Virus record (IMG/VR): IMGVR_UViG_3300045988_002593
Span: 1-43,922 of that record
Strand: one strand, 5' to 3'
Length of the DNA stretch: 43,922 bases
From: a virus
Lineage: Duplodnaviria; Heunggongvirae; Uroviricota; Caudoviricetes
In this document: piece by piece, positions 2,230-14,585 of the stretch
How the letters are laid out: each line of letters begins with the position of its first letter
Position numbering within the stretch: the first letter of the stretch is position 1
The notes under the pieces: generated by a model
What the model saw: the letters and a program-made list of their open reading frames with translations, nothing else
Databases searched by the model: none
Told to the model about the DNA's origin: nothing
Made by a program: the position numbers and the translations under genes

Positions 2230-2244
2230 AATACCCGCTCAACA

Positions 2245-2267
2245 AGCCCTCTACGGAGGGCTTTTCT
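2245..2267 (+). terminator. Rho-independent terminator ending the early operon
   Basis: GCCCTC/GAGGGC stem with TACG loop followed by TTTTCT. Confidence 0.55.
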
Positions 2268-2296
2268 GTACATCCTGCCCAATCCCCTTATATAAT
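2267..2296 (+). promoter_or_regulatory. Candidate promoter for the packaging/head operon
   Basis: Perfect -10 TATAAT at 2291-2296 with a weak -35 (TGTACA, 18-bp spacer); followed by a 7-bp-stem hairpin at 2303-2321. Confidence 0.35.
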
Positions 2297-2361
2297 CCCT
2301 TTAGACGCGTAGGGCGCGTCTGGTGCGCTCTGATGGTCAGACGCATATGCAAGGGGATTCT

Positions 2362-2871
2362 ATGAAGCTGAAACTTAAGCAGCCATCGCCAGAGGTGGTG
2401 CAAGCTGCACATGAAGAAGCTGTTAGCGCAAACCGTCGCCGTAAACGGCCGCGCGGCAAACAGAGCCTTTATCAATCATCTCGTAATTCCGCCGCGTTGT
2501 GGGACCCGGACTATTGCGACGCGTTAATCGAGTTCTTTGACCGCACGTCATGGGAGCTTGTACCCACGTCTAAGGGTGACGAACGTCCGTTGATTCAGGA
2601 TAAACCGCCATCACTGGCTCGCTTCGCCTTACACATCGGTGTCACTATCCCGATTATTAAGCTTTGGCTGCGTGAGATTCCCGCATTTGCAGAAGCCTGG
2701 GAGACAGCACAGGCGCTGGAAGAGGCATACTTCACTGAAACGGGGGCCGCGGGCATCTCTGCTACGTTTGCTGCCGCGAAACTGGGCCTGAATAAAACAG
2801 TTGTCGCCGAAGAAGTACGCGACGAGCCAATCAGCGAAGTAACAATTAAGGTGGTGTCCGGTGAATGTTAA
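2362..2871 (+). CDS. Putative terminase small subunit
   Basis: Directly upstream of and overlapping the large terminase gene; basic N-terminus; size typical of TerS; assigned by position only. Confidence 0.5.
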   Translation: MKLKLKQPSPEVVQAAHEEAVSANRRRKRPRGKQSLYQSSRNSAALWDPDYCDALIEFFDRTSWELVPTSKGDERPLIQDKPPSLARFALHIGVTIPIIKLWLREIPAFAEAWETAQALEEAYFTETGAAGISATFAAAKLGLNKTVVAEEVRDEPISEVTIKVVSGEC

Positions 2872-4132
2872 TATCACGGCAACGGAGCCGCAAGGCGCGT
2901 TTCTCGGTATGCATTGCAAGTTTCCGGCATTCGTAGCTGGCTTCGGTACGGGTAAATCCGAAGTTATGTGCAACTCTGCACTACTCGACAGCATGGAAGG
3001 TGGTAGCGATTCTATCATCGCCATGTATGAGCCGACTTATGACCTGGTGCGCCTCATCCTTGCACCGCGTATGGAAGAAAAGCTCACCGACTGGGGTATC
3101 CGGTACAAATACAACAAGTCTGACAACATAATCTATACGTCTTCCGGACAATTTGGGGATTTTGTTCTGCGTACACTTGATAATCCAGCACGAATCGTTG
3201 GCTACGAATCGTTTCGTGCGAAAATCGACGAGTTGGACACCCTTAACATGGAGCACGCCGAGCACGCGTGGAACAAAGTCATCGCCCGTAACCGCCAGTT
3301 GCCGCGGACATATAAACCTATTACACCGAAACCTGCTAATACCGTTTCCGTGTTCACTACCCCGGAAGGATTCCGTTTCGTACATGACCGCTGGGTAGTC
3401 AAAAAGAATCCAGGCTACGAGATGATTCAGGCGTCCACCCTGTCTAACCCGTTCCTGCCAGAAGATTATGTGCAGTCGTTACGCGACACATACCCAGGTC
3501 AGTTGATTGACGCCTACATCAACGGCGAGTTCGTCAACCTGACGGCGGGGACTGTCTATTACGCCTATGACCGCAGGAAAAACAGCAGCCGCGAAACAAT
3601 AAAACCAGGCGAGACTCTGTATATCGGGCAGGACTTTAACGTAGGCCACATGGCTAGTACAGTTTACGTGCAACGTGGCAAAGTCTGGCATGCAGTCGCC
3701 GAGTTGGTGGATATGTTCGATACGCCCGATGTGGTGAGAGCCGTAACAGAGCGCTGGAAAAGTAAGGGCCACTATATCGTTATGTACCCCGACGCAAGCG
3801 GTAAAAACCGTAAAAGTAACAACGCCAGCACATCTGATATTGCCCAGTTACAGCAGGCCGGCTTCGAAGTGCGCGCTAAATCGACAAACCCACCGGTTAA
3901 AGACCGCGTAGCGGCGATGAATAAGGCGCTTGAATCTGGTATGGTCATGATTAATGAACAGGCTTGCCCTGTTACCGCACGATGCCTGGAGCAACAGGCT
4001 TACGACAAGAACGGCGAACCGGATAAATCAGGCGGTGTGGACCACCAGAATGATGGAACCACATACCCTATCGCGTATGAAATGCCGATTCGCAAACCAG
4101 TTATTAACGTCCCGGTGACTTTCGCACTTTAA
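2861..4132 (+). CDS. Terminase large subunit
   Basis: Walker A-like GFGTGKS near the N-terminus, 423 aa, directly upstream of the portal gene. Confidence 0.85.
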   Translation: MNVNITATEPQGAFLGMHCKFPAFVAGFGTGKSEVMCNSALLDSMEGGSDSIIAMYEPTYDLVRLILAPRMEEKLTDWGIRYKYNKSDNIIYTSSGQFGDFVLRTLDNPARIVGYESFRAKIDELDTLNMEHAEHAWNKVIARNRQLPRTYKPITPKPANTVSVFTTPEGFRFVHDRWVVKKNPGYEMIQASTLSNPFLPEDYVQSLRDTYPGQLIDAYINGEFVNLTAGTVYYAYDRRKNSSRETIKPGETLYIGQDFNVGHMASTVYVQRGKVWHAVAELVDMFDTPDVVRAVTERWKSKGHYIVMYPDASGKNRKSNNASTSDIAQLQQAGFEVRAKSTNPPVKDRVAAMNKALESGMVMINEQACPVTARCLEQQAYDKNGEPDKSGGVDHQNDGTTYPIAYEMPIRKPVINVPVTFAL

Positions 4133-5626: not shown

Positions 5627-5662
5627 GTTCACCTATAGCCCCGAAAGGGGCTTTCTTATAGT

Positions 5663-6739
5663 ATGCTATTAACTTTAGCGCCACAGGGTTTATCTATGAG
5701 CTTACTTACATCCCTAATCAGCCATCAGATATGGCTGCAACGCACCGCATCCGGTGAAGTGAAAGACCTCACGCCGTTCATTCAGGAGATAAGGGATGAA
5801 ATCAAACGGCAGGTGCTGTTATTCGGTGACGACGGTCGCAGCACTGCGCGACTGAATAAACTGTTACGCGACCTGGAAGAAGCACTAACCGGTATTACGG
5901 GTGACTGGCAAACAAAGCTAACAGACGACCTTAAGGAACTGTCGGCGTACGAGGCTGAGTGGAACGTAAAGACACTGACCGCCAACGTAGACGCGGAATT
6001 TGTTACGCCTACCGCTGAGCAGGTATGGGCCGCTGCCGAGTTTCAACCATTATCATTGAGCGACAAGCCCGTTGATTTCACCAAGCTGATGTCTGGATGG
6101 GGCGAAACGGAAGTAGCACGTCTTGTAACTGGAGTTAAGATGGGCTTTGTGCAAGGTCAAACCACACGGCAGATTGTTAAGAATGTTGTTGGCGCTGGTG
6201 GACTAGCCGACATCTCAGAACGTAACGCGACTACGGTAATCCGCACCGCGCTGTCCCACGTATCCAACGAGGCCCGTAACGAGACGTACCGCCAGAACGA
6301 CGACATCATCGAGAAATATGAGTGGGTGTCAACTTTGGACAGCCGTACCAGCACGATTTGCAGGGCCAGAGACGGAATGACGTGGGAAATCGGTAAAGGT
6401 CCGATGCCACCAGCCCATCCTAATTGCCGAAGTACCACTGCACCGGTAATCAGTTCAGAGTTCGACTTCCTTGATAAAGGCGCAAAACGTGCGGCTAAGG
6501 GTGCGGACGGCGGTACTCAGGTAAGCGCAGACACCACCTATTACGAGTTCCTGAAACAACAACCAGCATGGTTTCAGGACCAGGCGCTCGGTCCTGTTCG
6601 TGGTAAGATTTTCCGTAACAGCGGTATATCGCCGGAAGAGTTTCGCGTAAAATCTGTAGATGGTTTCGGGAATCCGCTTACGCTTAAGCAGATGGCGGAA
6701 CTCGATAAACGTGTTGCTGATTATCTGAAAGGGGATTAA
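5663..6739 (+). CDS. Head morphogenesis / minor head protein
   Basis: 358-aa ORF directly after the portal gene, the usual position of this family. Confidence 0.55.
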   Translation: MLLTLAPQGLSMSLLTSLISHQIWLQRTASGEVKDLTPFIQEIRDEIKRQVLLFGDDGRSTARLNKLLRDLEEALTGITGDWQTKLTDDLKELSAYEAEWNVKTLTANVDAEFVTPTAEQVWAAAEFQPLSLSDKPVDFTKLMSGWGETEVARLVTGVKMGFVQGQTTRQIVKNVVGAGGLADISERNATTVIRTALSHVSNEARNETYRQNDDIIEKYEWVSTLDSRTSTICRARDGMTWEIGKGPMPPAHPNCRSTTAPVISSEFDFLDKGAKRAAKGADGGTQVSADTTYYEFLKQQPAWFQDQALGPVRGKIFRNSGISPEEFRVKSVDGFGNPLTLKQMAELDKRVADYLKGD

Positions 6740-7590: not shown

Positions 7591-7791
7591 GAGCTTGTGA
7601 AGTATGAACAAGCGACCGCGGCGCGGGCAGGTAACGGAGCGGGACGTAAGTCCTGAGTGTAGTTACGCTGACGCGTTCGGAAGGGCCATACTCTATTGCT
7701 TGTGTAAAAAGTAACAGGTTTACTTAGATTACGCCGTTTCTATGTTTAAATGATAAGGACTAGCGCCCTGCTTTAAGGCAGGGCTTTACTT
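7591..7791 (+). ncRNA. Candidate structured leader/ncRNA, copy A (conserved core about 7591-7698)
   Basis: About 118 nt conserved with 39424-39541; compensatory stem GGAC-GUAA-GUCC here versus GUGC-GUCA-GCAC in copy B; ends at an intrinsic terminator. Confidence 0.3.
7765..7791 (+). terminator. Intrinsic terminator between element A and the spanin genes
   Basis: GCCCTGC/GCAGGGC stem, TTTAAG loop, then TTTACTT. Confidence 0.5.
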
Positions 7792-10155: not shown

Positions 10156-10184
10156 GAGAGGGACTTCGGTCCCTCTTTTCATTT
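10156..10184 (+). terminator. Intrinsic terminator after the capsid gene
   Basis: GAGAGGGAC/GTCCCTCTT stem with TTCG tetraloop, then a T-tract. Confidence 0.65.
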
Positions 10185-14561: not shown

Positions 14562-14585
14562 AAGGCCCCTTTCGGGGCCTTTTTC
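14562..14585. terminator. Bidirectional intrinsic terminator
   Basis: AAGGCCCC/GGGGCCTT stem with TTTC loop, T-tracts on both strands; separates convergent tail and cassette transcripts. Confidence 0.65.

Follow-up and report, generated by a model that had tools for sequence, protein, structure and literature searches.

Comparative analysis places a hairpin upstream of terS within a conserved two-hairpin RNA element of Kagunavirus-like and related siphophages

We analyzed a 43,922-nt stretch of viral DNA (hereafter “the window”) from a Kagunavirus-like siphophage of the Guernseyvirinae, whose nearest relatives are Escherichia and Salmonella (Jerseyvirus) phages. The locus of interest lies on the + strand between a small-gene operon and the packaging genes. 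The upstream operon encodes, among others, a NinH-like protein and one of 76 aa whose function is unknown, and is closed by an intrinsic terminator at 2244–2268 (+ strand; AAGCCCTC-TACG-GAGGGCTT, then TTTCT). The conserved gene for the 76-aa protein (1999–2229, phrog_10134), which adjoins the terminator and the late promoter and is predicted to be driven by a near-consensus promoter of its own at 1927–1955 (TTGACG-17-TATAGT), is replaced by a different gene at this place in other Kagunaviruses. Downstream, terS (small terminase, 169 aa; 2362–2871, + strand; phrog_3064 terminase, 2e-75) is the first gene of the packaging and head operon, and is followed by terL (2861–4132, + strand; Pfam Terminase_6N/6C), the portal gene and the head genes. 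Four internal terminator-like hairpins were noted within the late operon (5637–5652, 7765–7784, 10156–10177, and 14562–14581): a gene without a promoter (5663–6739) begins 10 nt past the first, and the last is bidirectional and sits where the + and − strand gene blocks converge.

Ahead of terS, a consensus scan returned a sigma-70-type promoter at 2267–2296 (+ strand) as the top promoter-like site of the region, with 10 of 12 consensus matches, i.e., a weak −35-like TGTACA (2267–2272), an 18-nt spacer, and a −10 TATAAT (2291–2296). The original prediction had described a 7-bp hairpin, AGACGCG-TAGGG-CGCGTCT, immediately after this −10: the TATAAT was confirmed, and the hairpin was found at 2303–2321 exactly as first described, beginning 6 nt after it. 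This hairpin (HP1, + strand) consists of 7 Watson–Crick pairs and a UAGGG loop, is extendable by two U·G pairs (2301–2302 with 2322–2323), and folds as RNA at −11.0 kcal/mol (z = −4.2 versus dinucleotide shuffles). Taken alone, a GC-rich hairpin of 7 bp is not beyond chance in the window: perfect 7-bp stems with ≥5 GC pairs numbered 28 (~19 distinct sites, mostly terminators) versus 4.4 ± 2.4 in dinucleotide shuffles, so that ~4 would be expected anyway, and the significance of HP1 must therefore rest on comparison with relatives. Since HP1 is followed by GGUGCGC and a U-run is absent there, it is not a terminator. A search of 2270–2365 against the Rfam 15 covariance models returned no match, even at E ≤ 10.

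As judged from the sequences of related leaders, HP1 is half of a two-hairpin RNA element spanning 2303–2347. The second hairpin (HP2, 2323–2347, + strand; GUGCG[C]UCUGA-UGG-UCAGACGCAU) starts 1 nt past HP1 in the window and presents a UGG loop whose closing pairs are invariant (GAUGGUC); for the two hairpins combined, the folding energy is −23.1 kcal/mol (z = −3.5). HP2 is no intrinsic terminator either, as it is followed by an A/U-mixed, G-containing stretch (UAUGCAAGG), and a terminator scan of the region listed neither hairpin. The module is present in a single copy in the window, where it scored 71 bits with a dedicated covariance model (R1, see below) against 9 bits for the next best site.

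Regions upstream of terS were then gathered from IMG/VR, GenBank phages, and one metagenome contig. Across ~9 lineages these shared one order of features: terminator, −10 TAYAAT, 6–9 nt, HP1, 0–3 nt, HP2, 12–24 nt, Shine–Dalgarno sequence (SD), and AUG. The lineages with the module were Kagunavirus, Jerseyvirus, the Cornell-like Guernseyvirinae, Dhillonvirus, and those represented in our set by L075, L076, L069, L120–122/L278, and L235/L225, and the identity of their TerS proteins to that of the window was only 27–93%. Overall, the element was found in >400 GenBank genomes. The terminator precedes the promoter in most lineages, and occupies the same place in the Jersey, Cornell-like, Dhillon, and L278 leaders. 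The −10 TAYAAT and the C that follows it were invariant in all lineages while the promoter spacer diverged. The same held among 36 unique Kagunavirus sequences, in which the −10 was invariant, the spacer variable, and HP1 the least variable stretch after the −10, with 0.11 minor alleles per site; the adjoining coding sequence had 1.14 and the discriminator 2.2.

These comparisons also bear on where transcription would begin. A sigma-70 start site would fall where the Watson–Crick core of HP1 starts, 6–9 nt past the −10 and at a purine. Because this distance and the purine are kept in all lineages, we predict +1 at or near A2303. The proposal that the hairpin forms the extreme 5′ end of the terS and head transcript is consistent with this pattern and stands as a prediction, our literature search having found no mapped transcription start for any of these phages.

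Next, we evaluated covariation within the stems. Because MAFFT and RNAalifold applied to the whole leader misaligned HP1 between lineages, loop-anchored ungapped alignments and a covariance model were used instead. In the loop-anchored alignment of HP1 (19 distinct sequences), 7 of 7 pairs had changes on both sides, and 90.2% of cells were paired versus 60.4% after shuffling (0/500 shuffles as good; slid controls ≤61%). The inner 6 pairs of HP2 were likewise 91.7% paired versus 70.7% in shuffles (0/500), and one C-G pair of HP2 is exchanged for A-U between Kaguna and Jersey. Covariance model R1, seeded with Kaguna, Jersey, Cornell-like, L075, and L076 sequences, recovered lineages outside its seed, namely Dhillon (20–23 bits) and L120–122 (13–19 bits); L069 scored 12.7 bits (E = 0.15). 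An alignment to this model including the non-seed lineages, which leans toward the model, was 92% paired versus 77%, with 9 pairs doubly changed (0/500).

The mismatches are directional as well. Non-Watson–Crick cells at HP1 positions 1–6 comprised 18 G·U and 3 A·C, and several of these arose independently (GUGUCU/GCGUCU in Jersey, AGGCGCG in one Kagunavirus, GAGGUG/GAGAUG in Cornell-like phages). A G·U on the + strand is an A·C on the other, and G·U was tolerated here while A·C was not, so the selected object is, on this comparative evidence, an RNA helix transcribed from the + strand rather than a DNA palindrome. The sequence comparisons thereby demonstrate the two-hairpin structure, its conservation, and its RNA nature. 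The original view of HP1 as a functional 5′ RNA structure accordingly gains partial support from its covariation, its tolerance of G·U, and its likely position, and was incomplete in treating as a whole what is one half of a module.

Wider searches added little to this set. An IUPAC pattern scan of IMG/VR returned mostly chance matches, among which R1 confirmed three new contigs, all Cornell-like, and a metagenome search with a single TerS protein yielded only one new leader, L278. A further variant was seen at 477–521 of L053 (Salmonella phage vB_SE130_3P), in which HP1 AGAC/GUCU is changed to CAAC/GUUG with a 1-nt shift and two compensatory swaps; the record, an assembly of 33.5 kb, is fragmented and its ORFs are broken, so the quality of its sequence is uncertain.

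The inverted repeats might still act at the DNA level, as protein-binding palindromes of either a terminase pac site or a late-promoter operator. Their location directly upstream of terS would be typical of the former, since pac sites of headful phages such as SPP1 typically lie immediately upstream of terS. In the literature, Jersey-like and Dhillon-like phages are both predicted to package by a headful mechanism, in the former probably from an as yet unlocated pac site, and several GenBank records are linearised inside the leader region. However, the stems change by compensation with no sequence motif kept, and the 18 G·T versus 3 A·C mismatches of the + strand preserve a helix in the RNA of one strand only. 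The literature moreover places no genome ends in the leader region: PhageTerm found no termini in a Kagunavirus, and the predicted Dhillonvirus cos sequence is located elsewhere. Record start points were discarded as evidence for packaging ends, being annotation conventions by which genomes are oriented to begin at terS. Along the same lines, four Dhillonvirus records (L059, L060, L064, and L067) share the T of the −10 TATAAT as their first base, which most likely reflects an orientation taken over from an early reference genome and not a physical end. Overall, we consider a DNA-level site very unlikely.

Conservation of the leader could also reflect coding, either of an N-terminal TerS extension from GTG 2323 or of a leader peptide from AUG 2333. 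In Kaguna and Jersey, the terS frame is open from the GTG or ATG at 2323, and many GenBank relatives annotate terS from this codon (182 aa), with several records linearised exactly there. The AUG at 2333, in the HP2 loop, opens a 10-codon mini-ORF (2333–2365), the TGA of which overlaps the terS ATG (ATGA) in Kaguna, an overlap that recurs in Cornell-like phages. Against both, changes between Kaguna and Jersey are all non-synonymous or HP2-compensatory across 2323–2361 and synonymous past 2362, the upstream ATG of Cornell-like phages runs into a stop codon, and the mini-ORF is not kept intact: Jersey and L120 have a shorter version, Dhillon has it out of frame, and L076 has ACG in place of its AUG. 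Both candidates were thus set aside as not conserved, and a coding explanation seems to us extremely improbable. The substitution pattern and the Cornell-like stop codon instead indicate, from the sequences, that the real terS start is ATG 2362 and not GTG 2323.

Access to this start codon may depend on where the transcript begins. Upstream of the predicted +1, two direct repeats of AAUCCC(C)UU (AATCCCCTT at 2281–2289 and AATCCCTTT at 2294–2302, + strand) form an anti-SD stretch at 2281–2302 that overlaps the −10 box and the discriminator. This stretch is complementary to 2346–2364, which holds the SD (AAGGGGA, 2351–2357), the spacer, and the terS AUG (2362–2364), i.e., the 3′ strand (2351–2364, + strand) of a putative long-range helix (P1) that encloses both hairpins. 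The predicted fold of 2281–2365 has −35.2 kcal/mol (z = −3.5). In Kaguna and Jersey, the duplex energy of the cognate arms was −11.5 to −14.8 kcal/mol (≤6/500 arm shuffles equal), which ranks in the top ~1% of genomic windows, and one clear covariation was seen: the third base of the −10 faces A or C where it is T (Kaguna TATAAT), and G where it is C (Jersey TACAAT).

This signal is restricted in its distribution. In the same genomic-window control, P1 was modest in Cornell L050 and L076 (4–5%), unremarkable in the L071 type, Dhillon, and the L120 lineage, and absent in L075. The proximal anti-SD C’s were the most variable leader positions in Kagunavirus, with uncompensated changes, and in a swap of P1 arms between lineages, the G-rich SD arm of Kaguna showed no preference for its cognate partner. 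We therefore accept P1, as modeled here, as genuine in the window and in Jerseyvirus, and not as family-defining. With its 5′ strand located ahead of the predicted +1, P1 would form only in transcripts that read through the terminator at 2244–2268. Accordingly modeled as long and short RNAs, the ribosome-binding site (RBS) had a predicted unpaired fraction of 0.26–0.44 in read-through RNA in 8 of 12 lineages, and of 0.55–0.73 in promoter-initiated RNA in most lineages, a difference in predicted accessibility that is moderate.

A precedent for such an arrangement exists in the T4 genes e, soc, 49, and I-TevI, in which a hairpin that sequesters the RBS carries the promoter within its 5′ strand (PMC3014915). 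Similarly, the SD, spacer, and AUG of the window and of Jerseyvirus find their complement in the −10 and discriminator. In the window, the −10 (2291–2296) lies inside the P1 5′ strand (2281–2302), and RNA initiated at the predicted +1 (2303) would lack that strand. The hallmark of the T4 type, an SD and/or AUG paired upstream in a longer transcript, was found at the level of predicted pairing for the window and Jerseyvirus and is not general. Several differences remain: the promoter here is of sigma-70 type whereas that of T4 is a late promoter, the helix here encloses two extra hairpins and so makes a three-way junction, and in several lineages of the family the pairing is weak or absent.

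The module can likewise be compared with 5′ stabilising stem-loops of the ompA type, with which it shares a stable hairpin at or near the 5′ end, ahead of the RBS of a long mRNA, the 5′ end being a predicted one here. HP1 is the stable stem under selection that a stabiliser would call for (−11.0 kcal/mol, z = −4.2, 7/7 pairs covarying). In contrast to a generic stabiliser, which would need neither, the module has a conserved loop and a second hairpin at fixed spacing.

From these patterns we infer a transcription start, mRNA stabilisation, translational gating, and a partner for the RNA, which would combine as follows. Host RNA polymerase would start from the −10 at 2291–2296, giving a transcript whose 5′ end lies at or a few nt from A2303, with HP1 (2303–2321) forming at the very 5′ end and HP2 (2323–2347) next. 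RppH and RNase E require unpaired 5′ nucleotides, so a paired 5′ terminus would be expected to withhold the end from these enzymes and yield a longer-lived late mRNA. The two stable hairpins would lock up the leader and leave the SD (2351–2357) and AUG 2362 single-stranded. Conversely, read-through past 2244–2268 would add 2281–2302, whose pairing with the SD and AUG (P1) would close the ribosome site, so that terS would be translated only from its own promoter, following the logic of the T4 genes e, soc, 49, and I-TevI. In addition, the module would be read by a specific partner through its GGG and UGG loops at 24-nt spacing. We favor this composite, i.e., a structured 5′ leader that stabilises the terS and head mRNA, keeps the RBS open, gates read-through RNA, and has a specific partner, while holding it tentatively, at somewhat less than even confidence. 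One weak point is that a passive stabiliser leaves the invariant loops and the fixed loop spacing unexplained.

Across lineages the HP1 loop is YNGGG with an invariant GGG while the stems vary freely, the HP2 loop is UGG (with one CGG and one UGA variant) closed by invariant A-U and G-C pairs, and the two loops are spaced 24 nt apart in 41 of 46 unique leaders, with 23–25 nt in the remainder. A passive 5′ cap needs neither invariant loops nor a fixed 24-nt spacing, and fixed loop bases at fixed spacing would thus imply recognition by a specific partner. This lends weight to the “protein-binding element” that the original prediction had listed as one of several options, again as a reading of the sequences.

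Such recognition could be the primary function of the module, with a trans-acting factor reading the two G-rich loops to set translation or decay of the terS and late mRNA and the stems serving only to present the loops; TerS itself, a late regulator, a host RNA-binding protein, or the 30S subunit would be candidate factors. In keeping with this, the loops (GGG; GAUGGUC) stay invariant while every stem pair changes, the loop-to-loop distance is nearly always the same (24 nt in those 41 of 46 leaders), and the module occurs as a single copy per genome, always ahead of terS. However, no candidate partner emerged from the analysis. For CsrA, the expected GGA motif is missing from the loops, and for TerS, the loops are constant although TerS identity falls to 27%, with no sign of co-evolution. 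We regard a binding platform of this kind as possible rather than probable; it overlaps with the composite favored above and is compatible with it.

Other ways of building a switch or binding site from this leader were tried and rejected. An attenuator-like alternative pairing of 2316–2322 with 2338–2344 is not conserved, HP2 being changed in Jersey by internal compensation. A pseudoknot between the GGG loop and a CCC in the discriminator is contradicted by L069, L075, and L076, in which the CCC is missing. A sigma-dependent pause element, suggested by a TATGAT at +27 in Jersey and Cornell-like phages, is missing from Kaguna, Dhillon, and others, and a CsrA-type leader was dropped as GGA is absent from both loops (YNGGG and UGG) in all lineages.

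A last comparison concerns antitermination. The putL and putR sites of HK022 are RNAs of two stem-loops, ~73 nt long, with long bulged stems and a triplex, and putL begins at +3 (PMC9378689). As in HK022, two stem-loops here come right behind a promoter and open a long, terminator-containing operon, and the module would function at the RNA level. An RNA of the put type suppresses downstream terminators through the zinc-binding domain of the RNA polymerase β′ subunit. By analogy, the nascent two-hairpin RNA could act in cis to make RNA polymerase resist the terminators of the late operon, without a Q-type protein. Several observations fit: the two adjacent stem-loops run from the predicted +1 much as putL runs from +3 (PMC9378689), the + strand operon has terminator-like hairpins at 5637, 7765, and 10156 along with the promoterless gene at 5663, a screen of the upstream small genes, limited to those at 95–2229, recognised no Q-like protein, and conserved loops in a fixed geometry would suit a defined docking surface.

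The module is, however, 45 nt long with short regular stems, as opposed to the ~73 nt, long bulged stems, and triplex of put, and neither a triplex nor multiple bulges are predicted for it; it also heads a late packaging operon, whereas put heads an early one. Scanning the HK022 genome with R1 gave nothing better than 7.7 bits (E ~2), and hence no similarity to put in sequence or structure. A conserved −10-like pause element downstream is absent from the leader sequences, and late operons often hold internal terminators without dedicated antitermination. A put-like antiterminator is, in our assessment, improbable.

A different leader was observed in L153–L156, remote TerS relatives from IMG/VR. 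There, at ~270–340, an extended −10 promoter (TGTTATAAT) is followed by a terminator-like hairpin (GCGGATCGAAAGAGCCGC) with a T-run, which directly precedes the terS SD, and the −10 region is complementary to the SD and spacer (ATAATATCTCT against GGAGAAATTAT). From its sequence, this looks like a promoter–terminator leader awaiting antitermination.

Taken together, HP1 is ordinary in kind, a 5′ leader stem-loop, while its parent is a well-supported cis-regulatory RNA motif that lies outside Rfam and is apparently undescribed. Among candidates for therapy and biocontrol of E. coli and Salmonella, phages of Kagunavirus, Jerseyvirus, and Dhillonvirus are some of those isolated most often, and we know of no late regulator annotated in these phages. 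A covarying RNA at the head of the packaging operon thus offers a concrete handle on the control of late expression. It also corrects the terS start codon relative to many annotations, and provides a compact natural part, a +1 hairpin with an insulated RBS, as a candidate for synthetic biology. More speculatively, and we consider this doubtful, the module may be a new class of promoter-proximal riboregulator and license the whole late operon of packaging, head, and tail genes, either as a receptor for a dedicated late-gene factor or as a compact, protein-independent RNA of the put kind whose two G-rich loops would dock on RNA polymerase and take it past the internal terminators. Such a licensing module would be common to Guernseyvirinae, Dhillonvirus, and related uncultivated siphophages, and, if the loops do dock on RNA polymerase, it would join only one other family of phage antiterminator RNAs that work without protein.
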